A DNA stretch of 64,000 nucleotides from assembly GCA_000004695.1 (NCBI GenBank), contig CM000151.3:6112001-6176000 (forward strand). Direction: 5' to 3'. The notes under the pieces were generated by a model that saw nothing but the letters and a program-made list of their open reading frames with translations, was not told the DNA's origin and did not search any database. This document shows positions 3,221 to 51,868 of this stretch, piece by piece; position 1 is the stretch's first letter; the number at the start of each line of letters is the position of its first letter. A program made the translations under genes and the position numbers. Source of the DNA: Dictyostelium discoideum (taxonomy: Eukaryota).

Positions 3221-3998
3221 CCTAATATATTTTGAATAAAAGGAAGGATCTAAAGTATTTATAAACTAATATTATTTAAAGATAAATATATTGTTTCTAA
3301 TAATGGTAATTGATTTGGCTTGGAAATAAATTATTTTCAAAGTCTTTGGAAGAAGATTAATATTAATTGATTTCCTTTATGTCCACCCAAATTTAAAGTT
3401 GTTAAAGATTAAGAGTTGGGAAAATTATTATTTTCTAAATTTGGGTTATCACTTCTACCAAATTCTAAATTTGTTAAAGAATAACATTCATTGAAATCGG
3501 CATTATAAAGAAAGAAACCACTAACATTACTTGTAAGTTTAAATGTTTTTATAGTTGAAGGGACATCAAAAGGTGAATGAAATGATTTACCAAGTTCAAT
3601 ATATTCAATATTTGAAAGTAATCTACTATCATTTAAATTACTATTGAAATTATCATTAAATGAAATTGACCTAATTGGGGATGGAAGTGCCAATGGTTGT
3701 ATTGACTTTTGAATGAGTCACCAAATTCAATGTTTGTAACATTATACCAACTTTAATATCAACATTCACTCTTACTATAAGATTTGTAGTTGAAACTGGA
3801 ACTTTGGTTTCAATAAATAATTCCACAGTTTATCTTAAATTTAGAACTGAATTTGGTATTGAACCATAGATAATCGTACTTTGATAGGCATTCAAGATAT
3901 AAAAAAATTAATCCCTCTGGAAGTTTATTTGTTGAAATGATTCCCCCTAATCTTAAAACTTTAAGACCTTTTGGTAACCACTCGATAATGGTTTTCAT
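3221..3998 (-). pseudogene. FNIP-repeat protein gene remnant (copy A), internally deleted and frame-disrupted
   Basis: ORF fragments 3409..3693 and 3810..3998 (SIRSISFNDNFN..., IIEWLPKGLKVLRLGG...) align to the intact FNIP ORF 5739..7131 but are split and truncated. Confidence 0.5.
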
Positions 3999-4343
3999 TT
4001 TTTTTTTTAACCGTTATTATTAATAAAGGAATTGCGAATGTGTATCGCTTTGTATATATCACAATTTTTTTAACCGTTATTAATAAAAGGAGTTGCGAAT
4101 GTATTACTTTGAAAAGAAAACAATTTTTTTATTTTTTTTATTTTTTTTTTAAATTATAGCCCAATTAAAAAGAAATAATAAATAAAATATTTTTTTTTAA
4201 TCTTTTTTTTTTTTTTAAATCTAATATTTTTTTTTCACCCACCATTTAAAAAATATCTGTATAATCTATAAATAAATATATATATATATTATTTTACTTT
4301 TTTTATTTTAAAACAACCAATGGAATTCATATATTATAAATAT

Positions 4344-4404
4344 TATTTTAAAAAATGGGTATAAAATGTAAGTATTGGCAAGTTACCTTTTTATAATTAC
4401 ATTT
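4344..4404. repeat. Perfect 18-bp inverted repeat (aatgggtataaaatgtaa / ttacattttatacccatt) with a 25-nt spacer, giving a hairpin
   Basis: Read directly from the sequence: 4344-4361 is the exact reverse complement of 4387-4404. Confidence 0.6.
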
Positions 4405-4743
4405 TATACCCATTATCATAGTTATTTTTTTTTCTTTGTTCAGTTAACATAGGAGCTTAAAATTATTGGCATCATATTCATAACAATTATGGAAAAACAA
4501 ATCGAATCGCTCATCTTCTTTTGTTTTCAAGATGGGTGCACCTTTACTATTCAATTTTTTTTTTTTTTTTTTTTAAAAATTAATAACTTTATCCATTTTT
4601 AATTTTAATTTTTTTTTTTTTATTTTAATATAAATACTTTTTAAATTTTTTATTTTATTTTATTATTTAATTTAAACATTATACCAATTTCTATCATTCA
4701 ATTTTCTAATTAAAAAAAAAAAAAAAAAAAAAATAAAACAAAA

Positions 4744-4992
4744 ATGAATAAAATAATTCTCATTGTACTTTTATTATCAATTGCCACCTCGGGAGCATTT
4801 TGTTCAATTTTCAATACCAAATGTAAACAAGTTTGTAAAGAAAGTTACCAATTATGTGTTGCCGGTTTTGACTCACCAGATATCTCAGTGCAAATCGAAG
4901 CTTGTTCAGAAGTATTGGATAAATGTTTTTATAACTGTATCCATCCTTATATAGTTGTTTTCCCAAGTAAATCACCTGCAGCTCATAATTAA
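4744..4992 (+). CDS. Candidate small secreted cysteine-rich protein (82 aa; signal peptide MNKIILIVLLLSIATSGAF, then 8 Cys)
   Basis: ATG-initiated ORF preceded by an A-run promoter-like region. Hydrophobic N-terminus with regularly spaced cysteines; non-random codon usage. Present only in duplication copy A. Confidence 0.35.
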   Translation: MNKIILIVLLLSIATSGAFCSIFNTKCKQVCKESYQLCVAGFDSPDISVQIEACSEVLDKCFYNCIHPYIVVFPSKSPAAHN

Positions 4993-5367
4993 ACATAGAA
5001 ATCAATTGATAATTGAATTTTAATTTATATCATCTTTCCGACTTAACTCAAAATTCAATTTTTCTAATTATCTAAATTATTACAATCAACAACCTCCCTT
5101 TTAATTTATTTATTTAATTATTAAACCCATTAACAATAAAATAAGTTTATCATATAATTTAATTTTTTTAATTTATTTTTGTGTGTTTTCCCTAATAATT
5201 TTTTGAATAGTTATCTGATACTTAAATATTTACTATTATTATTATACAAATTAAATTAAGATAAAAAATAAAAAAAATAAAATTGAATGTATATTGCTCT
5301 CCTCCAAACTGATTTAATTACTTGATTTTCTTTTTCCATTATGTAATTAATTTAATTTTTTTAATAA

Positions 5368-5406
<39 letters not shown>

Positions 5407-5643
5407 TTTAATTTGTGTGAAAAAAAAAAAAAAAAAAAAAAACTATTTTCCCAACCTGTTTTGGAAAAAAAAAAAAAAAAAAAAATAAAATAAAATAAAA
5501 TAAAAATGTTTACCCAAGTTCTTTTTTATGAAATGAAACTGGTTTAATCTATAAAAAAAAAAAAATCAAAGATGATCGAAATCTTTTTTTTTTTTTTTTT
5601 AATTAAATCCACATGTGGGAGATAATTTCTGCTCGGTATCAAA

Positions 5644-7769
5644 TAAATAAATTTTTTAACTATAAAATAATTATTTTTTAATTTTAAACATTTTTTTATT
5701 TATTTATTTAAATTTAAGGGAAGAACAATTAATTTTAATTATTGTTCATCAGTAACCCTAATATATTTTGAATAAAAGGAAGTATCTAAAGTATTTATAA
5801 AACTAATATTTTTTGAAGATAAATATATTGTTTTTAATAATGGTAATTGATTTGGTAATTCATAAATATTTTGATTAAAAGTTGGACATTGGAAATAAAT
5901 TATTCTTAAAGTTTTTGGAAGTAGATTAGAATTAATTGGTTTATCAAAAGATTCACCAAAATTAAGTGATTTAAGATTTTTAGGTAAAGAATTCTCTTCA
6001 ATTGGAAAATTGTAATAATATCCTAAATTTAAATTTGTTACTGATGATGGTATTTTTGATAATTGATTCCCTTTATATCCACCCAAATTTAAAGTTGTTA
6101 AAGATAAAGAGTTGGGGAAAATAATTTTTTCTAGATTTGGGTTATCTCTTCTACCTAATTCCAAATTTGTTAAAGAATAACATTCATTTAAATTAGTTAC
6201 ATAAAAAAAGAAATGATATGGATCACCACTAAGAGGGGAACCAAAGTTGTCATTGTAATTAGTTGTAAGTTTAAGTGTTTTTACAGTTGAAGGGATATCG
6301 ATACGAGATTGAAATGATTTACCAAGTTTAATATATTCAATATTTGAAAGTAATATATTACCAACTAATTCTTTATTGAAACTATCACCAAATGAAATTG
6401 ATCTAATTGAGGGCGGAAGTGCAAATTGTTCAATTCTACAAATGAACGAATCACCAAATTTAATATTTGTAACATTATGAGGAATCATACCAACTTTAAT
6501 ATCAACATTGGCTCTTACTTCAAGATTTGTAGTTGAAACAGGAACTTTGGTTTTACTAAATGATTCCACAGTATATCTTAAATTTTGGACTGAATTTGGT
6601 ATTGAGCCATAGATAATGGTACTTTGATAAGTATTATCAAGATATAAAAATATTAATCCTTCTGGAAGTTGATTTGGTAAAATCGGTTGTTGAAAAGATT
6701 CTCCTAATTTTAAAACTTCAAGACTTTTTGGTAACCACCCCCCCCAATGACTGATTAAATATTCCAGTGAATTCAATGCTTTTTATACCATTTTTAATAA
6801 TTTTATTATTTAATTGTTGATTAAATCTCCTATTAAAAATTACACTAATCAACGAATCTGGTAAAGAATTTTCTTGTAAAATTGGATTATAACTACCAAA
6901 AAATTCCAAATATCTTATACTTGAAGGTAAATCACCAGCTTCTAAATGTGAACCACCTCTATTTAATGAAACATCGAATAAATAATTTTTATAAACATAA
7001 TTATTTAATTTTTCAATTGTAAAACTATAATAATTACTATTATTATTATACAAATTAAGATAAAAAAAAATTAAATCTCTTATATATTTATTTCCCCAAA
7101 CTGATCTAATTATTTGATTTTCTTTATCCATTTTTTTTGCTAATTAGTAAAATAATTTAATTATTTTAATAAAAAAAGTTTCAAAAAAAAAAAATAAATA
7201 AAAAAATAAAAAAATTCAATCGAGAGGAATTTTTTTTGTGTGGAAAAAAAAAAAATTAAAAAATGGGGTTGTTAAAAAATTAAATCTTTTTTTTTTCAAA
7301 TTTTTTCATTTTTTATTTTTTTTTAATTTAATTTTTTTTTATTTTTTTTTAACATTTTTACAACACCATGATAATTATCCATGGATAATTACTACCATAC
7401 AAAATATTTTAATTTAATTGGTTACTCGTAATAAAATACAATCGTTGCATTTAAGATCTTTTATTGCATCTTTTGGATTTAGCCACTTCTGCATCATTCC
7501 TCGAAAAGTTCTCTTGGATATCTGTCATATGACTTGTGGGGGTATGTTTGCCAAATATATACCAAATGAAAAAAAAAAAAAAAAAAAAAAAAAAAATAAT
7601 ATTTCCAGATTTTCCTCCTGTTTGGAAAAAAAAAATAAAAAAAAATAAAAAAAAAATAAAATAAATAAATTAAATTTAAAAATATTTTTGTCCCAGGTCT
7701 TTATTTTTGTGAAATGACTGTAATAAATCTGGTTTAGATCTATAAAAAAAAAAATATCCAATATCTTGA

Positions 7770-10710: not shown

Positions 10711-11588
10711 TCCAACCCAAACAACAAAGGTAAGCATAATTTTTATATGCCCAAAAAAAAAAAAAAAAAAAAAAAAAAAATAAAAGGTATCCAGGGGAAT
10801 TTAAATGATGATCAAAATATATTTGCTATTCTTAGTTATTTATCAATCATGCTGAATGGAAATTTCTGATTTAATCCTCCCTTCATACCTTTATTGGGCC
10901 AATATTTAAATATTCTTTAAATATAATAATACTAATATTTTTCTTTTGAATTATTTAGGTTTTTTTTTTCTCTGATAACAATCCTTGAAATATTTCACAC
11001 TGACAAATGAATTTATTAAATAAAAAAAAAATTTAGTTTTATAAAAAAAAAAAAAGGTTTTCGTGTTTATGATATTTTTTTATTTTTTTTATTTATTTTT
11101 TATTTTTGACTACTTTGTATAATAATTTATTTTATTTCATTTTTTTCTATTTTTAGATTTTTTAAATAATAATTTTTTTTTTTTTTTTTTTTTTTTATAG
11201 AAAAAGAAAATTATTTGATGACTGTATACATATGCAAACAGGCGATATTTAAAAAACAAGAATGGAATTTGGTATCATCACACTTTTTAATTTGTTTTTT
11301 TTTTAATTTTTTTTTAATTTCGACCATCGTTTTTATTTTTATTTTTTTTTTTTTATTTTTTTTTTTATTTTTTTGTGTTTTTCTTGTACAGTCATTCATA
11401 TTAAAAAAATAAAAAATAAAAAATAAAGAAAAACAAAACTATTATACAAATTCGAAACATATCGATAATACAACATAAAACAAATTACCTTTTTTAATTT
11501 TTTTTAATTTTTTTTAATTTTTTTTTTTTTTTTTTATTATTTTTGGAAACTTAAAAATAGTTTATTGCTAATAGTAAAAATATTAATA

Positions 11589-13651: not shown

Positions 13652-14075
13652 ATAAAAACAATTGTTCATAATTTCTTTTCTTTTATTTTATTTTTTATTT
13701 TCTGAAGTTCTAATTATCTTTTATTTATTTAAATTGGTTAAAATATTAAATTCATATTTAAATCTGCTTGTGGAGAATATTAATTATTTAAAATTAAATA
13801 AATGAAAAGAATCTAATTAATTAATTTTAATTTTTAAAAACTTTAAAAAAATTAAATTGTTGAGGCGATTAAATAAACAATGATGTTCGAATTTATTATT
13901 AGCAAAGTGTAAAAAAAAAAAAAAATATTATTATTTTTTTATAAAAGATTATAAAATCATTATCTTGTACTTGTTGATATCATACTCTTTGATCATAAAT
14001 TTATTTTAATATTGTATGTCAACATATTAATTTTACAAATATAATCTCTTGTTCCTAAGAATTAAGTAGTGGGGT

Positions 14076-14155
<80 letters not shown>

Positions 14156-14263
14156 TATAAATAGATTTTTTTTTTTTGTAATTAAATCAATTATAAAATC
14201 AATTATTATTTAAATCTAAAAACAAAGAAAAATAAACTATATATATATATATATATATAAAAA

Positions 14264-14516
14264 TGTTATTCAGTAAGTGTCTAAAAAAAAAAAAAAAAAA
14301 AAAAATATAATAATTATAAAAAACAAAATTCTAATCATTATTTTTTTTTTTTTTATAGAATCAGTTATTTCCTTATCAAATAAATCATTAAATGTCACAT
14401 CTAGATCATTAGTTTCAAATGATTCTAATTTAAATACTTTAAATTTAACTTGTGATTCTGTTTCAAGTGTAACTTCAACAACTTTCTTTACAAGACCAAA
14501 CTTTATAAACTATTAA
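14264..14516 (+). CDS. Candidate micro-gene: 57-aa Ser/Asn/Thr-rich peptide MLFKSVISLSNKSLNVTSRSLVSNDSNLNTLNLTCDSVSSVTSTTFFTRPNFINY. 2 exons: join(14264..14273,14359..14516)
   Basis: TATAAATAGA at 14157, then ATGTTATTCA|GTAAGT, an 85-nt poly-T intron, ATAG acceptor and exon 2. A paralogous exon 2 lies at 50439..50596 on the minus strand. Confidence 0.3.
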
Positions 14517-15228
14517 AAAAAAGTAAAAAAAAAATTATATAATTGAAATAAAAAAAAATATAAAGGGCCGACCAAAAATTAAAAATAAAAAAAAAAATTG
14601 TATTTTATGTAATTTTAATCAGTCAAAGGATTGTTTCACATCTTTAATAGTATTTAATTTTTGAACTTTTCAAAATAATTTTATTTTTAATTTATTATAA
14701 TATGATAAAAGTTATTAAATCTCAGTACTAAACCATGGTAAGATTGAATTGATTTTTATTAATTTCTTTAATTTTTTTGAAAATATTCGTACGAGCTATT
14801 TTTTCAAAAAATGTAAAAATAGCGAACGAATAGCAACATTAATTATAGAATCATTATTATAAGTTTTTGTCCGAAGATCGATTTCCATATACAGTAACAA
14901 TCTATAACCGAAGTCAGTTATTCAGAATAACAAATTACCTTTAAATCCTTCCCAGGTTTCTTAGAATAATAATTCAGTATAAAAAGCCAAAATAAAATAA
15001 ATAAAAATCATTATTGTTTAAATCATAGTTAGTGTAAAGATATAATATTATTTAGTGTTAAAATATAAATATAAATATAAATAAAATTAATAAAGAATTA
15101 ATAATATTATTACTACTCATATTTGTGTGTAATTACAATAGTAATTAAGGGTTCACACATATGTCTTTATTTAGTATTGTTATTTTGGTAAATATAGGCA
15201 ATACAGTTTATTTCAAAAATATCGATTA

Positions 15229-15302
15229 GTTCGGATGGTGTAGTCGGTTATCACGAATCCTTAACACGGATTAGGTCGTGGGTTCGATTCCCGCTCTGAA
15301 TA
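15229..15302 (+). tRNA. tRNA-Val(AAC): tRNA-Val (anticodon AAC)
   Basis: Cloverleaf reads GTTCGGA TG GTGT AGTCGGTTATC ACG AATCC TTAACAC GGATT AGGTC GTGGG TTCGATT CCCGC TCTGAAT A. D-loop and anticodon loop are near-identical to eukaryotic tRNA-Val(AAC). The T-loop B box is GGTTCGATTCC. Confidence 0.9.
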
Positions 15303-15369
15303 CAAACTAATGCTTTTATAAAAAAAAATTCTCAATTTGAGTGTGTTCGAGTAAAAAAGAAAAAATGAA

Positions 15370-15715
15370 TTTTTTCGATAAACTTAAAGGGATGGGATCT
15401 CAATTCACTAGATATTAGCAAAACAAATAAAAAAGAAAGAATCTACCCAAATTTAATCGGCATAATTATACATCAACTATGGAGAATAATTTGTCACAAA
15501 CTATTCAATCAAGACGAATCTAAAACTCCACCCTCATTTGATCCAACATTAATTGAAAAAGAACTAACCAACTTAATTAAAATAGAGAAATTCATTTTAA
15601 TAAAGAAGATTGAAAGGAATGAAACAATATACAAATTAAATAACAGAGACCAATTAATAATCAACTTCAACACATCATGGCATAACCCGAACACTCCAAA
15701 CCCAATTCCACTATA

Positions 15716-15753
<38 letters not shown>
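15370..15753 (+). mobile_element. TRE3-type non-LTR retrotransposon, 5'-truncated 3' fragment (ORF2 C-terminal tail plus a 37-nt poly(A))
   Basis: Translation (...ERIYPNLIGIIIHQLWRIICHKLFNQDESK...NPNTPNPIPL*) is ~60% identical to the C-terminal tails of the elements at 19497-19652 and 20676-20993. It sits directly downstream of tRNA-Val. Confidence 0.6.
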
Positions 15754-15755
<2 letters not shown>

Positions 15756-18700
15756 AAGTAGTAGTAATCATAATATAACCAAAAATATCAACATATAACA
15801 ATATAAAAATTTAAAAATTTAAAAATCTAAAAATTTAAAAATGTAATAAAATATAACAATACACCGCTTTTAGGTAAAAAAAAAAAAAAAATAAACTTAA
15901 AGGTGAACTCAACTTAGGCGAAGAAGAGTTAATAAAAAAACTATTCAAATAAGGTTATTCTACCCACATACCTTGGAATTAAATAGTAATTAAACAAAAT
16001 TAATAGATAATTTCATAGTTAATGGTACTCTTAACATTGTCAGAAGACAAAAGGGTATAACAGTATTCGGTAGAATACTAAAAGAAAAATTCACATTATT
16101 ACACGAGTGTTACAGCACTTTCAAGTATGAAGATTTCCCACTGCAAAAATTCATACTTTACACCCCAGGATATCACTATGTCCACTTTTACACATTTACA
16201 AAAAACATAATAAAAAAAATAAACAATCAAATGGTAAAAGAAAACTGGGGATTGGAGCCATTACTAATAGATGAATGCAACATAGTAATGCTACCAGATG
16301 TGATTAGATATTCATGCATACTATAATTTAATAAAGAAGATGATATCTCAATCATTAAAACAAACATTGATGCTATAAAAGGTAGTAAGCATCCAATAAG
16401 AGCCTTCATCTCTGAATATAACAATAAAGAAATAAGAGATGTTAGAAAAAAAAAAAACACAAGTAATAAAAACCAACAACCAACAACTACAAATACAACT
16501 AAATCAATACCATCAACTCCACCAACAACTAATGCATCAACAACCACACCAATAACAACCACACCAATAACAACCACACAAACAACAACCACACCAACAA
16601 CAACCACACATCAATTACCAACAAGCAATACAACAATCTACAACCTAAACAAAACTACTACTACTACTACTACTACTACAAAACCTATCAATAAAATTAC
16701 TACAAGCAATGGTACCAAGTTTCCAATTGCCAGTAGTATTAGAAAATAATGGAACAATTAAAATTATTACTATGGAACTGCAGAGGTAATCAATCAACCA
16801 ACGCTAAGAATAAAACAGAAGAAACGATAAAAAGAATTGGCACTCAATTAGCACTCCTAACTGAAACTAATTTCAATGGATTCAACCACCACAAAACAAT
16901 GTTCAACTTTGAAAGAATAGATCATGGTTCAGGTAAAGGAACTGGCATAGCAATAGAAAATAGAGATACAAGAAAAGGCCACATATCAATAAACTTCAAA
17001 GACGATGATGGTAGAATACTATCAATTAAATACAATTCCTTTAATTCTATCAACATATTATTGATCTATGCTCCAGCGACTATATCTGAAAGAAACACCT
17101 TCATAATCAACTCAAAATCACTGTTTAAAAAATATAATTCAATCAACCATCAAATAATAGCAGGCGACTTCAATAACAACCACGATTGCAACAGCTTCTT
17201 CGGTACTGAATTACGTAAAATAATAGACCAAGACATGCTACTAGATACTGGTATTGAAGAAAACACTCCAACATTTCCAAGATCAATGAAGAGACTAGAT
17301 AGAATCTACTGTCATCCAACACTACTAAACCAAAATTCAAAACTGGTAGTCCACAACACAGTATTTAACAAATCAGATCACTTTCCCATCACAATCACAA
17401 TACAAACCAACAGAGAAACAGCAACAACAACAACAACCAAACTAGAAAGACTCCCTTGGACATTATGTAAAGAAATTCTCAACAACAAACATATACATGA
17501 TGGGTTATCAGAATTAATCAGTAAGAACAAAGATAAGATCAAATCAGTGGAGGAATGGACGAAATTTAAAAATAATGTCATCAGAGATTATTTAAAAAAA
17601 GAACAAAACAAAATAAAGAAAGAAAAGAACAAAAGAAAATACGTAATCCACAAATTACTTGGAAATAGTGATATCATTCCAAAGATGAGAAAAGAACTCA
17701 ATGAAGAAATAAGTAGAATATTAGAAGAAGAAAGAAAGGTAAAAGCATGGGATATCAAATTAAAACTCCACCTGCATCAAGAAACACCAAGCAAATACCT
17801 CACAAGTATCCTTAAATCCAGAGCCAAAGATAAATCAATATTCCAAATAAAAGATAAAGATAATAAGACCATATCAGATAAAGAGAACATAGCAAAAAGA
17901 TTTGTTGAATTCTATCAAGATCAATATGAAGAGAAAGAAGATAACGAAGAAACCCACAAGAAGTTATTAGAAAAATGGGAAGTAGACGTTGATTTAATCA
18001 AGAAACTCGAGATAGACAGACCGATAAGAATACATGAAGTGACCAAAGCAATCAAAACTTCAAGTATCCACAAATCTCCAGGTTTAGACGGTATCAATGC
18101 ACTATTCTACAAGTACCACATCAACTCAATAGCAAGAATATTGACTATAGCTTTCAACGACCTCCTCACAAATAAGAAAGAAATCCCCACAAAATTCAAA
18201 GAAGGAGTAATAACAACAATATTCAAAAAAGGAGATGAACTAAACATTTCAAATAGAAGACCAATCACCCTTCTCAATACAGATTACAAAATTTTAAGCA
18301 AAATTCTCAACAGTAGATTATTAGATATCACCAGTAAAATTATCAACAAATTTCAAAACGGCTTTGTTCCAAACAGGTTCATCCAAGACAATATTCAGAT
18401 CATGAAGGAAGTAATAGAAATAAGTAACAAAAGAAAGAACAATACACTCATTACCTTTTACGATTTTAACAAAGCATTCGATTCAATCAGCCACAAGAGT
18501 ATCACAAGAACATTAGAGCATATTGGTATCCCCCCAAAATTCACAGCGATCCTACTAAACCTACTCAAAGATACTAAAAACAAAATAAAGATCAACGAAT
18601 TTTTAGTCAATGGAATAACAATCAGAAGAGGAACAAAACAAGGAGACCCAATATCACCAACAATCTTTGCTCTAGTTTTAGAACCACTTCTAATATATAT

Positions 18701-19658
18701 CATCAATGATAATACAATCAAAGGCTTCACTTTACCAAATTCCAAATCATTAAAACTCACTGCATTTGCTGACGACATAGCAACATTTACAAACTCCACT
18801 GAAGAACTAATGAAAATTAATACTAAAATCCAAAAGTACTGCTCAGCAACATCATCATCGTTAAACAAAGAGAAAACAGTAATGATAGCAATAGGAGATA
18901 AACCACACGATCTACCATTCCAAGAGAGTACAGTCCCAGAAAGATATCTTGGCCTCAATTTCACCAAAACAGGTTTAAATTCAAAATACAACACTTTAAT
19001 CCAAGAAATGAAAAACAATCTAATCAAATGGAAATCACAAGCAATAACGATGAAGGCAAAGATGACAATTCTCAAAACATACGTTCTATCCAAATTAACA
19101 TACCATCAATACATGGATAATCTAAATGAAGAACAAATTGAGGAAATCAATAACATGACCAGATGGTTCTTATTCTCCTCAGTTAAGAATACATATACAG
19201 AAGAGAGAAAATACAAAACTATGATGAAAATAGACAGAGCATATGCAGATTGGAAAGAAGGAGGCATAAAATTATGGGATATAGAACTAAGACATATAGC
19301 ATTCAAAATCTGGTACATGAACAGGCTACTCCATAACAACTACAACAACAACAACAATACCTTACAAGAATGGTACATGGAGCAATTAAGTAGAAAAAAA
19401 GCCCCCACTTCAACCCTCAACGATATGTACAGACACTGGGGTGTATTCAGAGTCAAATTTTACCAAAACCATCCAAAGATAAATGAACATAGAAACAGAA
19501 TTACTAAATCTCATCGAAACTGAAAAATTCATCACACTAAAGAAAATCAAACACGACGAAGCAATACTAAAAAACACCAATCAAGATCTTCACAAATACA
19601 AATTCAACAAAGCCTGGCAAACCCCAGCAGCTCCGAACCCTCTTCCAATTTAAGTAGT

Positions 19659-19709
<51 letters not shown>

Positions 19710-19825
19710 GTTTAAAAAATTTAATACAATTGAATAATAAAAATAAAACCGTTTAACAAACACCGCCGAAAAGACACAAGGACATTCCTTGAAGGTCTGA
19801 TCACAGGTAAAAAAAAAAAAAAAAA
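15754..19825 (+). mobile_element. TRE3-type (tRNA-gene-targeted, downstream-inserting) non-LTR retrotransposon. ORF1 is degenerate; ORF2 (APE endonuclease plus reverse transcriptase) is intact but the zinc-finger region is internally deleted. Ends in a 3' tail and oligo(A)
   Basis: ORF2 is 16749..19523 (924 aa): N-terminal APE-like LLLWNCRGN...SDHFPI, RT motifs FVPNRFIQDNI, ITFYDFNKAFDSI, KQGDPISPTIFALVLEPL, FADDIATF. There is an internal poly(A) at 19664-19700 followed by a conserved 110-nt tail (tataatatagtttaaaaaatttaatac...ggtctgatcacagg) and A17. Confidence 0.75.
16749..19523 (+). CDS. Retrotransposon ORF2 polyprotein (APE endonuclease plus reverse transcriptase)
   Basis: See the mobile-element entry. 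Its ATG overlaps the ORF1 stop (TAATGG). Confidence 0.8.
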   Translation: MEQLKLLLWNCRGNQSTNAKNKTEETIKRIGTQLALLTETNFNGFNHHKTMFNFERIDHGSGKGTGIAIENRDTRKGHISINFKDDDGRILSIKYNSFNSINILLIYAPATISERNTFIINSKSLFKKYNSINHQIIAGDFNNNHDCNSFFGTELRKIIDQDMLLDTGIEENTPTFPRSMKRLDRIYCHPTLLNQNSKLVVHNTVFNKSDHFPITITIQTNRETATTTTTKLERLPWTLCKEILNNKHIHDGLSELISKNKDKIKSVEEWTKFKNNVIRDYLKKEQNKIKKEKNKRKYVIHKLLGNSDIIPKMRKELNEEISRILEEERKVKAWDIKLKLHLHQETPSKYLTSILKSRAKDKSIFQIKDKDNKTISDKENIAKRFVEFYQDQYEEKEDNEETHKKLLEKWEVDVDLIKKLEIDRPIRIHEVTKAIKTSSIHKSPGLDGINALFYKYHINSIARILTIAFNDLLTNKKEIPTKFKEGVITTIFKKGDELNISNRRPITLLNTDYKILSKILNSRLLDITSKIINKFQNGFVPNRFIQDNIQIMKEVIEISNKRKNNTLITFYDFNKAFDSISHKSITRTLEHIGIPPKFTAILLNLLKDTKNKIKINEFLVNGITIRRGTKQGDPISPTIFALVLEPLLIYIINDNTIKGFTLPNSKSLKLTAFADDIATFTNSTEELMKINTKIQKYCSATSSSLNKEKTVMIAIGDKPHDLPFQESTVPERYLGLNFTKTGLNSKYNTLIQEMKNNLIKWKSQAITMKAKMTILKTYVLSKLTYHQYMDNLNEEQIEEINNMTRWFLFSSVKNTYTEERKYKTMMKIDRAYADWKEGGIKLWDIELRHIAFKIWYMNRLLHNNYNNNNNTLQEWYMEQLSRKKAPTSTLNDMYRHWGVFRVKFYQNHPKINEHRNRITKSHRN

Positions 19826-19847
19826 GAGTGTGTTCGAGTTTATTTGT

Positions 19848-19886
<39 letters not shown>

Positions 19887-20327
19887 AGTAGTTGGTGTAA
19901 AAAGCCTTAAATAAGGCTAAAAATTTTAGAATTGTAATGATTCACCATATTAAAACTAATATGGATTTATGTATTGACATAATTAATATGGAAATCATAA
20001 GAACCATAATATAATTCAGTTACTAGTCATAACCAACTTAAAAGGTTTGCCGTTAACAATAAATAATATTAAATAATAACTGACTTTAGAAGGCTAATCC
20101 TGTTACTCAAAATATTAATATAAATACTCTAAAAATATTAAATAAAAATCATTGTCTTTTCTTTACTATCTTAAATATACAAATAAACTATTAATCTCTT
20201 ATTTGTTTATCTTATCATTGTAATTATATATTAATTTTAATAAACCATTTTTTTTTTTTTTTTTTTTTTTTGAATTGGATTTTAATAAACCACTTCAGCT
20301 GATTTAAATTAGTATCCATAGAAATCG

Positions 20328-20399
20328 TCCTTGTTGGTCTAGTGGTGAGGATTTTCGCCTGTCACGCGAAAGGCCCGGGTTCAATTCCCGGACAGGGAG
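20328..20399 (+). tRNA. tRNA-Asp(GTC): tRNA-Asp (anticodon GTC)
   Basis: TCCTTGTTGGTCTAGTGGTGAGGATTTTCGCCTGTCACGCGAAAGGCCCGGGTTCAATTCCCGGACAGGGAG. Near-identical to the canonical eukaryotic tRNA-Asp(GUC). Followed by a C and a T6 Pol III terminator. Confidence 0.9.
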
Positions 20400-20452
20400 C
20401 TTTTTTGGAAGATTTCAAAATTCCTTGTTAAATTTTATATTAACCAATTCCG

Positions 20453-20998
20453 CAGCATTTCTCACCAAAAAGGTAGAAACACCCTCTTCAGATTCTTCTC
20501 AAGATCACTTCCAGGTATCAACCACGAAAGAGACACCAGATGCAAGATCTGTGGCCACCTATTCAGAGACCCTTATTCTCACCTCTTCACTCTATGCCAA
20601 GATATCCTAGATATTGAAAAAACCATCATATCAACAGTTAACAAATTATCATTCATCAAAATCCACAGATGGTCAATGGATACCTTAGACATATCAAAAT
20701 ACAACAGAACTGAGAGAATCTTCCCCAATCTCATAGGAATAATAGCACACCAATTATGGAAGATAATCTGTCACAAATTGTTCAACACTGATGAAAGCAA
20801 ACCAGAGCCAAAATTCGAACAAAAGGTCATAGAAACAGAATTACTAAATCTCATCGAAACTGAAAAATTCATCACACTAAAGAAAATCAAACACGACGAA
20901 GCAATACTAAAAAATACAAATCAAGATCTTCACAAATACAAATTCAACAAAGCCTGGCAAACCCCAGCAGCTCCGAACCCTCTTCCAATTTAAGTAGT

Positions 20999-21047
<49 letters not shown>

Positions 21048-21160
21048 GTTTAAAAAATTTAATACAATTGAATAATAAAAATAAAACCGTTTAACAAACA
21101 CCGCCGAAAAGACACAAGGACATTCCTTGAAGGTCTGATCACAGGTAAAAAAAAAAAAAA
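20453..21160 (+). mobile_element. TRE3-type 5'-truncated copy (same family as 15754..19825): zinc-finger/C-terminal part of ORF2, internal poly(A), 3' tail, oligo(A). Flanked by a 14-bp TSD
   Basis: CKICGHLFRDPYSHLFTLC zinc knuckle, then the ...NKAWQTPAAPNPLPI* tail. The 3' tail is identical to 19700-19808. The direct repeat attaaccaattccg occurs at 20439-20452 and 21161-21174. Confidence 0.7.
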
Positions 21161-21171
21161 ATTAACCAATT

Positions 21172-21964
21172 CCGATTAATCATCTACACAACAAAGTTTG
21201 CCCCATTTGCAACAATGAAATGAATAATGATCCCTACGGTCATTTGTTTTTCAATTGTCAGCACACAATCAACTTCATTAACCACGACAAATTAAAATAT
21301 TTTATATATAAAAATTGCAATGGAAACAAAAACTGGTCACTAACAAAAAACCAAACAACAAAATTATACACACTCATCTATAAACCACAAACAAACAACA
21401 AAGCATTTAAACCAGATCCAACTATCAATATTAATTTTCATTTTGCAGAAAACGCACAATATAAAAAATACAGGTTCAACTGGAATTATATAAACACAAA
21501 TCTTGATCTAGTCAGAACACATGCATATTGGAACATAATCTCATTAGTTATTCACCAAATATGGATATGGTTATGCAAATCATTATTTGACATCAATATA
21601 ACTCAATCAATTGTTAATTGGAACAACCAAATTAACAACACAACACTAGATTATGATATATTAAAATCAAAATGGCACAAGCTAATAAGATTGGAATATT
21701 CAAGAACTTTATCAAACTTTAACCAATACTCAATTAAAAACAACCTCACAAAAACTCAAAAAGAAACCCAATGGTCCGAAACCATCAAAAAATTTAAAAA
21801 AGAATGGAGCATAAACACTAATGAACCAATTCCAACAATTACACCACCAATTAATTATTAATTACCTAATCTAAAATAACATACCATTTTAAATTCACAA
21901 AAACTAAAAAACCTAAAATAAATAAATAAAAATAACATACTAATTGTATACTACAATAGTTTAT

Positions 21965-21996
<32 letters not shown>
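21172..21996 (+). mobile_element. Second-family TRE-type non-LTR element, 5'-truncated 3' fragment with an intact C-terminal ORF segment (21220..21861) and a 28-nt poly(A)
   Basis: ~97% identical to 25780-26580 of the longer copy, where the corresponding frame carries a TAG at 25852. Confidence 0.65.
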
Positions 21997-24900
21997 GAAA
22001 TAAACGAGAATTTATACATATAAAAAATAAATCACTGTTATATCTTCAGTATGTTGCGTTTAAAAGTTACATTATAACATATCATCTAATTGATCACACA
22101 CACAACATTGTTGATCAAAAGATCGAACAACCATCTGGTATCACAAGATATATCAAAGCTGCAACACGTAGTGTCACTAAACACAAAATTCAACATGCAA
22201 AAAATGCAGATATGGCAACAACTATAAAAAATGCTATCACAAACCCAAACATGAACAAAAACAATCAACCACCAAAAAACAACATTAACACCCCACCAAT
22301 CAACGAAATTGCAAATTCCAATCGCAATAATAACCCACTTCAAAATAGTGGTTCAAAAGCTACACTAAATGAATCACTTGATATTACCAATCAATCCCAA
22401 AACAATAATGAAATATCACACAAAAGTTATTCTCCAAATAATAATAACGGGAAAAACTCATTATCAATGAGCAATCCAACCGATCCAACAATTGTACCAC
22501 AAAAACCTCTACAATCTCAACCAAACAAACCAAGTGCATCAACCCCAAATACAATAAATACAAGAAGAAGCAGCAATGCCCTGACTACACAACCAGTCAA
22601 TACTGGTGCTACCAAACCTAGTAAGGTATGAGCTCAAAAATCAACTTTATAACATGGAATTGTAAAGGATTCACTGAAAACCCAAACAATCAACACAATT
22701 CCTACCAAAAAGCTGTTGACACACTACAACTACTTATATCAAAACTTCCACCTCGTCCAACAATCTCAATACTCACTGAACTCAATTCATCACCATTACA
22801 ACTTAAACATGATTTTCCCGATCACATCATCTCTGTCACCAAACGAGGAAATGGTGTAATCATCATTAACCATAACCCAAACTCACTCAAACTCAAACAC
22901 ATATCAACAATTGATGGTAGAGCTATTTTAGCAGACGTTATATTTCCAAATCAATTACCAATTGGTATTCTTGGAATTTACGCACCAGTATCAAATAATA
23001 CCATCAAAAAGAATTCATATGCAACTTCACTACAAACACTTCTCCACAACCACTCAACAAACCCAATACCAAACCAATCCCAACATGTATCTATTATCTC
23101 AGGAGATTTCAACTGTATCCACAACGACAATTCACTATTAGATGATATTATCCAATCCTACACATACCAACACCATCTAATTGATCAAGGTGAATTTAAA
23201 AACACTCCAACTCATACACATGGTAACAGATTAGATAGAATATATACTCAATACAATAGAATAGACCCTGAAAATATATATACTCAAGTCCACCAAATTC
23301 CATCTTCATTATCAGATCATAATCCAATATCAACAACAATTTCTTCACCTTTTCAAATAAATAAACATAAGAAAAGATGGATATTATCACCTGGTACTAT
23401 AAATGACCATGAAGCAATCAATATTATCAATCATTTAATAACTAATCACAATAACACATCAATCAATCAATTTACAAACTGGTCAAAAGTAAAATCAAAA
23501 ATTATTAAAACTCTAAAAAACTATCAATATAACAAAGACAAACAAACCCAACGTGCAAAACAAATACTATTAGAAAAAGCAGCAAAATTCAAACATCTTG
23601 AAGAACAATGCATCGCCGAATACAATATTATATGTAACAAAAACAAATTACATCAAAACCACACAAACATATTAAAAAAACATATAAATGGAGAAATACC
23701 TAGCAAGTATCTATCAGCAATACTAAACAAAAGATCAAAAGATGCAAAAATTGAATCAATCCAATATGGTAACATCATTACATCCGACCCCGACCAAATT
23801 GAAAATGCATTTGTTGAATTCTACACAAATCTATATAGCTTACAAATATGTTGTCCAATTACTCACCAGCTCATGCTAAACACATGGTCCATCATAAAAA
23901 ATGAATATTGGAATGGTTTAGACTCACCATTTATACAAGATGAAGTTGAAGCTGCAATTAAAACCTGTTACCCCAACAAATCACCCGGTCCAGATGGCGT
24001 TACAAATGCATTCTACATTAATCATTTAAACCAAGTTAAACCAATTCTCACTGCATTATTCAACGATATACTAGAAAATCCTCACCACATCACAACAGAA
24101 TTCACCGAAGGTCTTATACACACAATATACAAGAAAGGCAACCCCTTACTCATATCAAATCGTCGTCCCATTACACTTCTAAACACTGATTACAAGATCC
24201 TCTCAAAAGTAATCAATGCACGTCTTCTGAGAATACTTCCTTTCATCATCAATAACAACCAAACTGGTTTCGTACCCCACAGATTCATCATAGACAACAT
24301 CATCAACATCAATGAATTAATCAACTACCTCAAATCTAAAAACCTCCCTGGTATCATCACACTATTTGACTTCTTTAAAGCATTTGATTCTATCTCTCAC
24401 GATAGTATTAAAAGAACATTAATTCATATGGTATACCAATAAAATTAATAAATTTAATCCACAAGCTATTATCTGACTTACAAGCAAAAATTTCAATTAA
24501 TGGTAAAACAACCAGAAAATTCGATATTAAAATAGGTGTAAAACAAGGTGACCCAATCTCAGCCACTTTATTTGTAATTGTAATTGAAATATTAGCAAGA
24601 ACAATAAATGCAGACAATTCAATAATTGGTTTACCAATTTCACCCAATCCACAAATTAAAATCAAATTTACCCAATTTGCAGACGACTCTACAACATACA
24701 ACATCAACTACGAACAACAACAACAATCAATCAAACATTTCGATAATTTCTGCGCTTCAACATCATCATCATTAAATTTTGACAAAAGTGCAATAATAGA
24801 AATCAACCCCCACAAAATCACTGATAAACACATAATAAACAATATTCCACAATCAAAAAGAATACCAATAACCAAAAAAGATCAATCAGAAAGAGTCCTT

Positions 24901-26579
24901 GGCTATTTCTTTAATCATAATGGTTTACATAGGAAATTACCAGAAACAATGAAAACATTGAATAAATCATTAGTACTATGGAAAACTAGTGGCACAACAT
25001 TAAAAACAAAAACAACCATCATAAACACCTACTCACTATCACCAATAACATATTTATCATACCTTGAAGAATTTACAAAAGATGAAGAAATTCAAATTAA
25101 TAAATTAATCTCATGGTTTATGAATTCTCCCGCAAATTCTGAATCACCAACTCTCAATACCAATTCCATTGAAAATAACACATCAACCATCCATTCACGT
25201 GCAAAAATACCTTTGATGTGTTATGATAGATCATTAAAACCATTAAAAGAAGGTGGTTGGGGTATGTGGAATATACAATTACGACAAGTTGCTCAAAAGA
25301 TTTGGATATACAACAGATTTTTACAAATGCATAAATCTGCAAATAATTCAATATACATGATAAGTTGGATGGATCAAATCATCAACAAATCAATCTCTTC
25401 TCCATACCTTATAAAAATCAAAAAAGAATGGGAAAACTATGCAACTCAAATTGGACATCTAAAAGATAAAGTTCAAATCCTACAACCAATATTAATAAAA
25501 AATCAAACCTCTCAAACATTAAACACAAATAATATTCCACTACCACCAACACTCAAAGAAATCTACTCGACAATACTCAACAATCACCAATGTAAATCAA
25601 AAGACTATATTGGCAAGAAATATTCAGATCTACTTCTTACTTCGCACCAACCATCAATACAACTATTATGGAAATACACATACGACCAACTATTTGTCAA
25701 AATTCAAAAATTAAAAGATCCAAAAGGCCGTGATACAATGCAAAGATTCCATGCTAGATGTCTTCCGATTAATCATCTACACAACAAAGTTTGCCCCATT
25801 TGCAACAATGAAATGAATAATGATCCCTATGGTCATTTGTTTTTCAATTGTTAGCACACAATCAACTTCATAAACCACGACAAATTAAAATATTTTATAT
25901 ATAAAAATTGCAATGGAAACAAAAACTGGTCACTAACAAAAAACCAAACAACAAAATTATACACACTCATTTATAAACCACAAACAAACAACAAAGCATT
26001 TAAACCAGATCCAACTATCAATATTAATTTTCATTTTGCAGAAAACGCACAATATAAAAAATACAGGTTCAACTGGAATTATATAAACACAAATCTTGAT
26101 CTAGTCAGAACACATGCATATTGGAACATAATCTCATTAGTTATTCACCAAATATGGATATGGTTATGCAAATCATTATTTGACATCAATATAACTCAAT
26201 CAATTGACAATTGGAACAACCAAATAAACAACACAACACTAGATTATGATATATTAAAATCAAAATGGCACAAGCTAATAAGATTGGAATATTCAAGAAC
26301 ATTATCAAACTTTAACCAATACTCAATTAAAAACAACCTCACAAAAACTCAAAAAGAAACCCAATGGTCCGAAACCATCAAAAAATTTAAAAAAGAATGG
26401 AGCATAAACACAAATGAACCAATTCCAACAATTACACCACCAATTAATTATTAATTACCTAATCTAAAATAACATACCATTTTAAATTCACAAAAACTAA
26501 AAAACCTAAAATAAATAAATAAAAATAACATACTAATTGTATACTACAATAGTTTATTTATATCAAAAAAAAAAAAAAA
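21997..26579 (+). mobile_element. Second-family TRE-type non-LTR retrotransposon, near full length. ORF1 is 22212..22631; ORF2 is 22628..26453 (APE, RT, CCHC-like zinc finger) but carries one frameshift (~24430) and one nonsense codon (25852)
   Basis: ORF1 stop and ORF2 start overlap (ATGA). APE: ITWNCKGF...SDHNPI. RT: FVPHRFIIDNI, TLFDFFKAFDSISHDSI, KQGDPISATLFVIVIEIL, FADDSTTY. Zinc finger: CPICNNEMNNDPYGHLFFNC. Terminal A14. Confidence 0.75.
22628..26453 (+). pseudogene. Retrotransposon ORF2 (APE plus RT plus zinc finger) disrupted by a +1 frameshift and a TAG
   Basis: The six-frame ORFs 22628..24442 and 24949..25854 and the downstream reading to 26453 are pieces of one polyprotein. The truncated sister copy reads CAG where this copy has TAG. 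Confidence 0.7.
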
Positions 26580-30516: not shown

Positions 30517-30559
<43 letters not shown>

Positions 30560-30663
30560 TTAATAATAATAAATTTTTATCTACCTTGTATAGAGACAAA
30601 AATGGAGATTTAAATACATTTAAAAATGTAATATCAAATATTAAAGAGGTTTACAAAAACTAA
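29360..30663 (+). CDS. Stand-alone AT-domain protein B. 2 exons: join(29360..29688,29790..30663), 400 aa, with an N/Y-rich low-complexity C-terminal insert
   Basis: FFFSGQGG. The GTATTA donor at 29689 and TTTTAG acceptor at 29789 restore G-LSLGE-IASSYCSGMIDLETACF across the intron. SSFHTSSMESI. Confidence 0.75.
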
Positions 30664-42976: not shown

Positions 42977-43077
<101 letters not shown>

Positions 43078-43806: not shown

Positions 43807-43845
<39 letters not shown>

Positions 43846-49962: not shown

Positions 49963-49975
49963 TGGGATTCGAACC
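49963..49975 (-). promoter_or_regulatory. External B box (exB, GGTTCGAATCCCA) ~40 bp downstream of the minus-strand tRNA-Val. It is the type of site used by TRE3 elements for targeting, but is unoccupied here
   Basis: The reverse complement of 49963-49975 is ggttcgaatccca. Adjacent sequence does not fold as a tRNA T-arm. Confidence 0.4.
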
Positions 49976-50013
49976 AGCGATGTTATAAATCAAGCACAAA
50001 AAAATGTTAGTTG

Positions 50014-50087
50014 TATTCAGAGCGGGAATCGAACCCACGACCTAATCCGTGTTAAGGATTCGTGATAACCGACTACACCATCCGAAC
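50014..50087 (-). tRNA. tRNA-Val(AAC): tRNA-Val (anticodon AAC), second copy in inverted orientation
   Basis: The exact reverse complement of the 15229..15302 gene, including 12 bp of 5' flank. Confidence 0.9.
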
Positions 50088-50438
50088 TAATCGATATTTA
50101 TGAAAAATAAATAGCTCCTACCCATTTTTAAATAAAATAAATAAAATGAAAAATAAAATTTCATTCTTCAAAAAAGAATAAGAATTAATAGAATATTATA
50201 TTTTATTTATAAAAAATCAACCTAAATTAAATTGATTTTAATAATATAAAGTAAAAATAACTTCTATTCTATCAAATATAAATTAAACAAAAGTTCCAAA
50301 TAAATAAAAAAAATAAAAAATTGTATTAAGATAAATATTTTTTTTAATTTTTTTATTTTATTTTAGTTTAGTTTATGGTCGGCCCTTTATAATAAATAAG
50401 TTTTTTATTTTGTAATTTTTTAATTCTTTTGCCTATTT

Positions 50439-50691: not shown

Positions 50692-51868
50692 GAATACCCT
50701 TTTTTTTTTAGTTTTTAATTTAATATTATACTAATATTTGAATAACCCATTGATTTTATAATTGATTGAATTAAAAAAAAAAAAAAAATTCTATTTATAC
50801 TTTTTTTTTTAAATTTTATTTTTTTTTTTAATTTCCAACACTAAAATTACCCCTGGTTAACCACTACTTAATTCTTATGAATAAAAGATATTTTTTGTAA
50901 AGTTTATATGTTGACATATAATATTAAAATAAATTTAAACCAAGGTGTATGATATCAACAATTAAAAGATAATGATTTTATTATCTGGTAAAATAAAATA
51001 AAAAAAATTTTTTTTTACTTTTTTTTTTTTTTTTTATAATTTGTATGATTCGAACATTATTGTTTATCACCTCAACAATTAAATTTATCACATTATATCC
51101 TCAATTATTAAATTTTTTGAGAGTATGAAATGTTAAATTTGATTTTTTATGGGTTAAAAATGAAAATTTGTGTCTTTGGAGATCTCCAATAATTAATATT
51201 GAGATTTTATTAAAAAAAACAATAATTATTATTTTTTCATTCACATTTTAAATATAATAAATCACCCAATTCCAAAACAATTTCAATGAGGTTTTAATAT
51301 GATATTTAATATTATTTTTTTTATTCTTTTTAAATGTTAATAATATTAAATTTTTTATTTTTTAAAAAAAAAAACTTAATATTATTAACATTGAAAGAAT
51401 AAAAAAAATAATATAAAATAATATAAACCCTTTTCTAAAATATATTTTGCATTTTAAAATGGAACAACTTTTTATTTAATTAAATGATTGAACTTTCATA
51501 TATTAAAATTTCAATTTATAATTTCAATTTTACCTTGGTATTCTATCGAGTTACTTACTTTTTCTTTTATTAAATCAATTGAATTTGCATAAAGAATATT
51601 ATTTATAAAACTTTTTTTTTAAAAAAAATAAAAAAAAGAAAAAAAGAAAAAATATTATACTATGGTAATTTGTTTTTATTTTATTTATTTTAATATTTTA
51701 TCAAAAGATAAAAACATAAATCTAATATATGCTAATAACATGTACTATTTGATTATTTAAAAGGTAGTGTTTATGTCGACAACATAATTTATAATATCAC
51801 ACATTGTTTATTATAAAAAATAAATTAAATTTAAAAAATTAAAAAATTAAAAAAAAAATAAATAAAAA

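Follow-up and report, generated by a model that had tools for sequence, protein, structure and literature searches.

In yeast, tRNA genes and the elements associated with them are sites of ectopic recombination and breakpoints of rearrangements, where the repeats are usually Ty elements or long terminal repeats (LTRs). In Dictyostelium, short Ser/Asn-rich proteins such as hssA/2C/7E and sigN, with an N-terminus of the type M-x-hydrophobic-x-S-I-S, are encoded by clustered and rapidly diversifying multigene families. The genome of Dictyostelium discoideum also holds tRNA gene pairs and triplets with identical anticodons, a result of the genome paper as it is cited in PMC8163159. Retrotransposons of this organism are found beside tRNA genes: TRE3-A, TRE3-B and TRE3-C 14–305 bp downstream of them (PMC5006619), and solo LTRs of DGLT-A (‘H3R’), with an LTR of 265 bp, 13–33 bp upstream of them (PMC5006619, PMC6101501). 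Our study concerns a 64 000 nt stretch of chromosome 2 of D. discoideum AX4 (contig CM000151.3, positions 6 112 001 to 6 176 000; hereafter the window), in which two tRNA-Val(AAC) genes on opposite strands are each preceded by a very short intron-containing gene, here termed a micro-gene (DDB_G0275705 in copy 1 and DDB_G0276001 in copy 2). The two segments were found to be paralogous and to carry one unit each of a micro-protein gene family, and we lean towards the view that this unit was copied between two tRNA-Val loci that already existed.

Results

Copy 1 (window positions 13851–15310, forward strand) and copy 2 (51084–50007, reverse strand) contain the same elements in the same order, and both retain an intron and a TATA box followed by oligo-T (Table 1). 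Because the copied unit kept its intron and its own promoter, it was not made by retroposition. The spliced product of copy 1 is a protein of 55 aa that equals DDB_G0275705 (P0001), and the protein of copy 2 (P0002, DDB_G0276001) is 78 % identical to it. An initial annotation of the window had described this inverted repetition, including an exon 1 that ends in TTCA|GTAAGT, a second exon of 158 nt, a motif shortly after the stop codon (42–48 nt past it) and tRNA-Val(AAC) genes with an identical 12 bp 5′ flank; every element that it listed was found in its place, and the promoter and intron structure that it proposed matches the annotated gene. The tRNA-Val(AAC) sequence is identical at 75 of 75 positions across seven loci (three strains and two other species), the 12 nt directly 5′ of both genes in the window read aaatatcgatta, and a 5′ flank of ~35 nt (gagctatt...atatcgatta) is common to both copies.

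With DUST masking, blastn aligned 13911–14599 with 51024–50346 (minus strand) at 75.8 % identity over 715 columns (E=9e-86), and a second match joined 15211–15310 to 50105–50007 with 98 of 100 positions identical. The global alignment of the two copies scored 376, and random segments taken from this window (n=185) scored 12±39 and at most 96. Without the later insertions, each copy has a paralogous length of ~1.08 kb. Identity in the conserved blocks is 86–100 %, with 87 % in the stretch of TATA box, oligo-T and leader; it is 71 % in the left edge block that carries GTTCGAAT, and 44–68 % in the 5′ untranslated region (UTR), the intron and the poly-A stretches. The window consists of ~80 % A+T, and the poly-A tract, the 5′ UTR and other stretches fail to align, which is what would be seen if the similarity were an artefact of identical tRNA genes and AT-rich low-complexity sequence. 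Against this stand the E value obtained under masking, an alignment score far above the random maximum, the conservation of the open reading frame (ORF), the splice sites and a G+C-rich motif with 16 of 16 positions identical, and the relatedness of the two annotated proteins. The similarity thus reaches beyond the tRNA genes and low-complexity sequence, as the initial annotation had held; the artefact is refuted, with a probability close to nil, and the two segments are a genuine duplication at the DNA level.

Homology stops 7–14 nt past the 3′ end of tRNA-Val. Its other limit, at 13851, lies within the family unit described below: copy 2 runs on into hspG2, as units do in the arrays of this family, and copy 1 beyond this point adjoins the 3′ flank of the Peptidase_M50 gene, being truncated just upstream of the family element. 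The spacers between the 3′ motif and the tRNA gene gave z ~2 when copy 1 was compared to copy 2 (3 of 300 background segments score equally high), whereas the copy 1 spacers of AX4 and the strain ACTFIW are clearly orthologous (z=16; 9–16 among orthologous spacers). The distance between the two tRNA-Val genes is 34.7 kb in AX4 and 23.6 kb in ACTFIW.

HMMER and profile searches revealed a family of at least 30 proteins of 52–57 aa, with an N-terminal MLFKSxIS, a C-terminal FFTRPNFxN[YF] and a variable Ser/Asn/Thr-rich middle, and this signature was seen in P0001 and in exon 2 of P0002 when they were aligned with at least 30 members. Most members are encoded on AX4 chromosome 2 (DDB_G0276591 to DDB_G0276751), a few are dispersed, and the family was seen only in D. 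discoideum and its close relatives D. cf. discoideum, D. citrinum and D. firmibasis. The micro-proteins match no family in Pfam, and a search of the accessible literature by nine gene IDs of the family returned no paper that mentions them. The family is encoded by a repeat unit of ~700 bp, in which an upstream block is followed by a TATA box and oligo-T, a gene with a single intron and, in its 3′ UTR, a GGG(A/C)CCGACC motif. Ten such units occur in one locus of the D. discoideum assembly GCA_054859385.1 (L001) and five in one of D. cf. discoideum (L002), each within 20 kb; the units of these arrays lie on one strand and alternate with hspG-type HSP20 genes, with no tRNA gene nearby. This is a previously undescribed, fast-evolving micro-protein family that is co-amplified with hspG.

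Across 17–21 aligned units, the upstream block, the intron acceptor and the reading frame are family-wide. The upstream block is conserved in 75–84 % of these 17–21 family copies and contains the small palindromes GTATCATAC and TATGTCAACATA; TATAAATAG with a T-run is present in nearly all copies, the exon 1 junction ATGTTATTCAG|GTA(A/T)GT is found throughout the family, and the 3′ motif, with the consensus CTTATTTATT-AAAAAGGGACCGACC-AAAATATTTAAAAATAAAA, sits just ahead of AATAAA. Rfam, applied to the whole window at gathering thresholds and to both copies at E≤1, matched only tRNAs within the two modules; the conserved blocks therefore represent no known non-coding RNA. Exon 2 is open in all 21 genomic copies, with lengths of 152, 158, 161 or 164 nt and indels that are multiples of three, and the ratio of non-synonymous (dN) to synonymous (dS) divergence between copy 1 and copy 2 is 0.5. 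These patterns indirectly support the micro-gene as a real but weakly constrained coding gene. The 21 nt TTCTTTACAAGACCAAACTTT (window 14484–14504) code for FFTRPNF; among 17 units of three genomes, 14 have this stretch unchanged, synonymous positions included, and this conservation exceeds what the protein alone would demand.

The promoter, the conserved block of ~150 bp and the 3′ motif had been taken for a module linked to tRNA-Val, and GTTCGAAT for a B-box-like motif. As the unit recurs at least 15 times elsewhere without a tRNA gene, these are features of the gene family rather than of the tRNA genes. The element GTTCGAAT is the variant, found in the clade of copy 1 and copy 2, of a family-wide upstream element (ACAATGATGATAGAATCATAT), and the ACTFIW orthologue of copy 1 reads GTTCCAAT. 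A B-box identity, considered in view of a putative extra-TFIIIC site, was rejected because the motif aligns to the family element GATGATAGAATCAT and because the ACTFIW form loses the core G; a relic external B box (exB) or tRNA remnant was likewise ruled out by the family alignment. The motif is thus a derived form of a family element, and was neither derived from a B box nor kept as one.

Orthologous loci were obtained via neighbouring genes. The set for locus 2, on the side of the MutS homologue DDB_G0275999 and hspG2, consisted of the strains ACTFIT (L006) and ACTFIW (L003), D. firmibasis (L004) and D. purpureum (L005), and that for locus 1, on the side of the Peptidase_M50 and MAT-domain genes, of ACTFIW (L007) and D. 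citrinum (L008). At locus 1 of D. citrinum, the Peptidase_M50 and MAT genes flank a tRNA-Val(AAC) gene of unchanged orientation, this locus contains no core of the micro-gene family, and a TRE5-like fragment is situated ~48 bp upstream of the tRNA gene. At locus 2 of D. firmibasis, tRNA-Val(AAC), likewise of unchanged orientation, lies between a large gene and MutS and is accompanied by an exB box (GGTTCGATTC), and this locus has neither an hspG gene nor a micro-gene. Since tRNA-Val is present in both outgroup loci where the micro-gene is not, the tRNA-Val genes are probably older than the shared unit, and the duplication probably did not create the second tRNA gene. The proposal of a segmental duplication that carried tRNA-Val with it therefore holds for the homology, and less so for the tRNA gene, which was probably resident already.

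A neighbour-joining tree was built at the DNA level from 21 units, in which AX4 is represented by the two copies of the window. The tRNA-associated copies formed one clade with a bootstrap value of 100 %, which splits into copy 1 (AX4 and ACTFIW; d=0.055) and copy 2 (AX4, ACTFIT, ACTFIW and an extra tandem unit of ACTFIW). Distances between copy 1 and copy 2 are 0.20–0.24, compared to 0.055 and 0.089 between the AX4 and ACTFIW orthologues. Shared derived characters of this clade are the GTTCGAAT variant, a deletion of 3–6 nt in exon 2, and GGGCCGACC in place of GGGACCGACC. The dS value for copy 1 against copy 2 is 0.21, based upon ~36 synonymous sites; for AX4, dS is 0.07–0.11 against ACTFIW, 0.43 against D. 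citrinum and 0.56 against D. firmibasis. Judged by these distances, the duplication predates the divergence of AX4 and ACTFIW and seems to have followed the species splits. At the MutS locus of ACTFIW (L003 3750–9640), two tandem units of HSP20 gene plus micro-gene were seen upstream of tRNA-Val, compared to one in AX4 and ACTFIT, so that this unit is a copy-number polymorphism.

In AX4, the equivalent of exon 1 in copy 2 has AGG in place of ATG, whereas the ATG is intact in ACTFIT and ACTFIW. Only four substitutions separate AX4 from ACTFIT in 2.4 kb (window 50697, 50699, 50746 and 50748); all four fall in the leader of the micro-gene as two clustered TGTT-to-GGGT changes (gene strand), one of which destroys the ATG of DDB_G0276001. 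This loss is either a private (multi-nucleotide) mutation of AX4 or an error of the reference. The annotated DDB_G0276001 model has 75 aa and an unrelated N-terminus; given that the ATG is kept in ACTFIT and ACTFIW and was lost through the leader substitutions of AX4, this N-terminus is probably an artefact, a work-around of the annotation. Copy 2 was not accepted as a pseudogene, as its ATG is intact in ACTFIT and ACTFIW and its exon 2 is intact everywhere.

Table 1. Positions in the window of the elements of the two copies and of the insertions around tRNA-Val copy 1 and tRNA-Asp
Feature	Position	Strand	Remarks
Copy 1, left homology edge	13851..13893	+	carries ACAATGATGTTCGAAT; GTTCGAAT at 13885-13892; alignment to copy 2 starts here
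Copy 1, conserved upstream (promoter-distal) block	13946..14073	+	86 % identical to copy 2 50986-50861
Copy 1, poly(A) tract, 75 nt, upstream of TATA	14078..14152	+	variable; not common to copy 2
Copy 1, TATAAATAGA then oligo-T	14156..14177	+	core promoter for RNA polymerase II (Pol II), of a type usual in Dictyostelium
Copy 1, coding part of exon 1 of DDB_G0275705	14263..14272	+	ATGTTATTCA, 10 nt; spliced product 100 % identical to the annotated protein
Copy 1, phase-1 intron	14273..14358	+	GTAAGT...TATAG; splice structure
Copy 1, exon 2, 158 nt	14359..14516	+	TAA at 14514-14516; 89 % identical to copy 2; dS=0.21, dN=0.10
Copy 1, 3′ motif TATAAAGGGCCGACCA	14559..14574	+	42 nt past the stop; ~10 nt before AATAAA; 16/16 identical to copy 2
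Copy 1, AT-rich spacer	14575..14811	+	ends with a distal piece of the tRNA 5′ flank (cgtacgagctattttttcaaaaaa)
AX4-specific insert X, 404 bp	14812..15215	.	TG...CA ends; direct repeat ttttttcaaaaa/tttatttcaaaaa; ends 13 bp upstream of tRNA
tRNA-Val(AAC), copy 1	15229..15303	+	ARAGORN; Rfam 57.9 bits
Left target-site duplication (TSD) GAGTGTGTTCGAGT	15339..15352	+	holds GTGTTCGAGT; same 14-mer at 19826-19839, right after the poly(A) tail
TRE3-type non-LTR pair	15353..19825	+	element 1b = 15353-15391 + 15893-19825; ORF2 16749-19523
Element 1a, 5′-truncated, nested in 1b	15392..15892	+	own poly(A) tail; TSD ATAAACTTAAAGG at 15379-15391 and 15893-15905
tRNA-Asp(GTC)	20328..20400		ARAGORN, Rfam
5′-truncated TRE3 downstream of tRNA-Asp	20454..21162		TSD TTAACCAATTCCG; inserted before the longer TRE3
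Longer TRE3 downstream of tRNA-Asp	21176 to ~26579		ends repeat: 21170-21986 vs 25763-26579, 98.7 % identical
Copy 2, canonical external B box GGTTCGAATCC	49965..49975	-	38 bp past tRNA; no mobile element beside it
tRNA-Val(AAC), copy 2	50013..50087	-	ARAGORN, Rfam; 5′ flank gggtaggagctatttatttttcataaatatcgatta
Copy 2, 3′ motif TATAAAGGGCCGACCA	50376..50391	-	16/16 identical to copy 1
Copy 2, micro-gene DDB_G0276001	50439..50700	-	exon 1 equivalent 50700-50691, intron 50690-50597, exon 2 50596-50439
Copy 2, TATAAATAGA then oligo-T	50790..50799	-	TATA box identical to copy 1
Copy 2, conserved upstream block	50861..50986	-	alignment to copy 1
Copy 2, left homology edge	51042..51084	-	GTTCGAATC at 51048-51055

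The extra ~400 bp that the initial annotation had noted in copy 1 is present, and its size is corrected to 404 bp (insert X; Table 1); the estimates of its length span 394–404 bp, with a flanking repeat of 12–13 nt (or AAAA). Insert X is absent from copy 2; in its place ACTFIW contains another, unrelated sequence of ~540 bp (L007 11576–12125), in which no tRNA remnant was found. No second copy of insert X was found in the window or in the eight loci fetched. With its TG...CA termini (14812–14813 and 15214–15215) and its position 13 bp upstream of the tRNA gene, insert X resembles DGLT-A and falls within the distance at which that element is found. However, it was not accepted as a DGLT-A solo LTR, as its length is 404 bp rather than 265 bp, and it also lacks a clean duplication of 5 bp. 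Upstream of tRNA-Asp, and downstream of the right-hand TRE3 TSD, another segment of ~450 bp (19850–20296) starts with T35, ends ~30–55 bp before the tRNA gene, is absent in ACTFIW and is probably a minus-strand fragment of the TRE5 type. That this segment and insert X are copies of one element was rejected, since only low-complexity matches joined them and the fetched loci hold no copy.

Downstream of tRNA-Val copy 1, TRE3-type insertions lie at +49 and +88 with TSDs of 14 and 13 bp, in the orientation of the tRNA gene, and a further TRE3-type insertion lies at +53 from tRNA-Asp in the same orientation. Each of the TSDs GAGTGTGTTCGAGT, ATAAACTTAAAGG and TTAACCAATTCCG was found twice, and poly(A) tails are present. 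The ORFs at 16749–19523 and 22628–24442 contain the Pfam domains Exo_endo_phos and RVT_1, that is, an apurinic/apyrimidinic endonuclease (APE) and a reverse transcriptase (RT). A tblastx comparison (E=1e-34) matched element 1a to the 3′ terminus of another TRE3, and element 1a appears to belong to a different subfamily from element 1b. The whole TRE3 nest had been assigned to copy 1; this stands for the two nested insertions at tRNA-Val, whereas the rest belongs to tRNA-Asp(GTC). In total, AX4 has at least five insertions around this pair of tRNA genes, compared to an ACTFIW allele with no TRE3 at all, in which tRNA-Val and tRNA-Asp are 80 bp apart. In the combination of APE and RT in ORF2, poly(A) tails, TSDs of 13–14 bp, tRNA orientation, distances of +49 and +88, and nesting, these elements agree with TRE3 as described (PMC5006619), and nothing about them is unusual.

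The exB box of copy 2 fits the B-box consensus GGTTCGAANCC and is conserved in ACTFIW, ACTFIT and D. firmibasis. It is unoccupied, as the initial annotation had it, with no mobile element adjoining, and none of the three D. discoideum strains has an insertion there. Downstream of copy 1 only a degenerate exB-like GTGTTCGAGT was found, and copy 1 of ACTFIW is without such a box. The two copies had been regarded as a clean before/after pair for tRNA-targeted retrotransposition. Because homology ends 7–14 bp past the tRNA gene, however, their 3′ flanks and exB regions do not form a paralogous pair of this kind, and the real before/after pair is allelic, AX4 compared to ACTFIW. The ATG of the MutS homologue (49748) is near the copy 2 exB. 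The idea that this box is kept empty to spare the MutS promoter, 265 bp away, is weakened by D. firmibasis, where the exB box GGTTCGATTC is followed by a full-length TRE3-like element (L004 3570–9000) between the tRNA gene and MutS. This element is apparently intact, with an ORF1 of 417 aa and an ORF2 of 1227 aa that contains RVT_1.

Further features of the window were recorded. The MutS homologue DDB_G0275999 (46412–49748, reverse strand) is annotated with 898 aa, and splicing of 49748–49077 to 48985–46412 yields 1081 aa, the length of the ACTFIT model; the AX4 model may be without an acidic N-terminal exon. Three paralogous MAT-domain (acyl-transferase) genes lie at 27718–32350, two of them inverted (28473–28890 against 29663–29245, 74 % identical), an arrangement conserved in ACTFIW and D. 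citrinum. A C/D-box small nucleolar RNA, DdR17 (Rfam RF01567; 101 bits, gathering score 80), is located at 10802–10871 on the forward strand, between genes and upstream of Peptidase_M50. FNIP-repeat genes form local tandem families at 41327–46137 and 3196–6738, one cluster having three copies (77–82 % identity) and the other two, and a near-palindrome of 138 bp is found at 43345–43482.

Discussion

Our study favours, with a probability of roughly 0.55, a history in which tRNA-Val genes already stood at both loci and the micro-gene unit was copied from one to the other, with the tRNA gene as the anchor. The two copies were shown to be homologous, to belong to the family and to be sisters, and the tRNA synteny, the TSDs and the empty allele were likewise shown. 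The order of events, the direction from copy 2 to copy 1 and the mechanism of recombination are inferences. Under this history, tRNA-Val(AAC) would already have been present at both sites, between Peptidase_M50 and MAT at one and between the large gene and MutS at the other. An array unit of hspG plus micro-gene would then have arrived upstream of the tRNA-Val gene of the MutS locus and become copy 2, which keeps hspG2 alongside, as in the arrays. Subsequently, a tract spanning the tRNA gene and, upstream of it, the spacer and the unit would have been copied, inverted, to the second tRNA-Val gene, 24–35 kb off, likely by ectopic gene conversion or by synthesis-dependent repair primed from the identical tRNA, and would have ended at the non-homologous junction at 13851. 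This copying would be placed after the split from D. citrinum and before the divergence of AX4 and ACTFIW. In AX4, the 404 bp insert 13 bp upstream of the tRNA gene would have followed, and then the successive TRE3 insertions at +49 and +88, while the adjacent tRNA-Asp would have gained insertions of its own.

Several observations weigh against this history. Each site is represented by one outgroup locus (locus 1 of D. citrinum and locus 2 of D. firmibasis), in which the module may have been lost, and the TRE5-like insertion of D. citrinum lies exactly at the site. The dS value between the copies rests on a small number of synonymous sites, and gene conversion at a later time could have lowered it. 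The spacers of the two copies are marginally alignable, so that the contiguity of the copied tract is not firmly established. Copy 1 of ACTFIW has two tRNA 5′ flanks of ~35–45 bp around its insert, a repetition that is unexpected under the simple model. In addition, the comparison was made on the fetched loci, to which the other tRNA-Val(AAC) loci of AX4 and the dispersed family members DDB_G0275641, DDB_G0276379, DDB_G0276467 and DDB_G0282383 do not belong.

The colinear elements, the shared 5′ flank and tRNA gene, and the sister position of the two copies would also be produced by a single inverted duplication of micro-gene, tRNA-Val and exB that made the second tRNA-Val gene, followed by loss of the micro-gene in the relatives and, perhaps, by conversion. 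The paired and triplet tRNA genes of identical anticodon that PMC8163159 cites would suit such an origin, and the TRE5-like insertion upstream of the D. citrinum tRNA gene could have come with a deletion. We nevertheless regard it as rather unlikely, as it needs two independent losses, one at locus 1 of D. citrinum and one at locus 2 of D. firmibasis, where hspG2 is missing too. Barring conversion, it also requires a divergence with a dS of 0.21 to be at least as old as splits with values of 0.43–0.56, and the 3′ flanks with their exB regions, which such a duplication would have included, are not homologous past 7–14 nt.

The strong homology of copy 1 and copy 2 ends at ~14600, where the homology of any two family units ends, and the spacer beyond it is barely alignable. 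Taken with the finding that regions upstream of tRNA genes are insertion hot spots in D. discoideum (PMC5006619), this could mean that two family units were inserted independently upstream of two tRNA-Val(AAC) genes, through a preference for such sites of the unit or of the agent that moves it. This was judged improbable, and clearly more so than the single duplication, because the two copies form an exclusive clade with shared derived characters, are similarly spaced from the tRNA gene and have the ~35 nt 5′ flank in common. The unit also shows no hallmarks of a transposon, and elsewhere its copies have no tRNA gene nearby. Copying between resident tRNA-Val loci remains our preferred reading.

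Beyond this one case, dispersed tRNA genes of identical sequence may provide D. discoideum with portable homology by which cassettes of neighbouring Pol II genes are copied between loci, a generalization that we offer tentatively and rate below even odds. A break upstream of a tRNA gene, possibly made by the tRNA-targeted retroelements, which cut there constantly, would be repaired from a paralogous tRNA locus, and the repair would bring with it ~1 kb from upstream of that locus, in the present case a whole micro-gene and its promoter. Were this true, tRNA-targeted retrotransposition would spread host genes between tRNA loci as a side effect. If only the ordinary reading is true, the window offers a well-resolved, unsurprising case of known genome dynamics in Dictyostelium. 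The main value of the present analysis is one of re-classification, as it assigns the promoter, the 3′ motif and the ‘B-box’ to a gene family, with no apparent relation to RNA polymerase III (Pol III) biology. A by-product is an allelic before/after series for tRNA-targeted insertions, with AX4 compared to ACTFIW and a filled exB site in D. firmibasis. The hspG-linked micro-protein family and the tRNA gene as a putative anchor for copying an adjacent gene are modestly new, and the retrotransposon biology of the window is textbook for the D. discoideum genome.

Among described proteins, hssA/2C/7E and sigN resemble the family reported here in their short length, the type of their N-terminus and their clustered, diversifying genes. 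The present family is set apart by its invariant C-terminus FFTRPNFxN[YF], which neither hssA/2C/7E nor sigN is known to have, and by its lack of a Pfam match. Compared to the tRNA-linked recombination of yeast, our reading likewise proposes a dispersed, identical Pol III gene as the homology anchor; it differs in that a Pol II gene of the host lies within the tract, and the mechanism is a putative one. A likeness in D. discoideum itself is to the tRNA gene pairs and triplets with identical anticodons, as far as these are set out in PMC8163159: here, too, two identical tRNA-Val(AAC) genes with a shared flank lie tens of kilobases apart on one chromosome. In contrast to such pairs, as that source presents them, the homology in this window reaches ~1 kb upstream and includes a complete Pol II gene, and the comparative loci suggest that it was the flank, and not the tRNA gene, that was duplicated.

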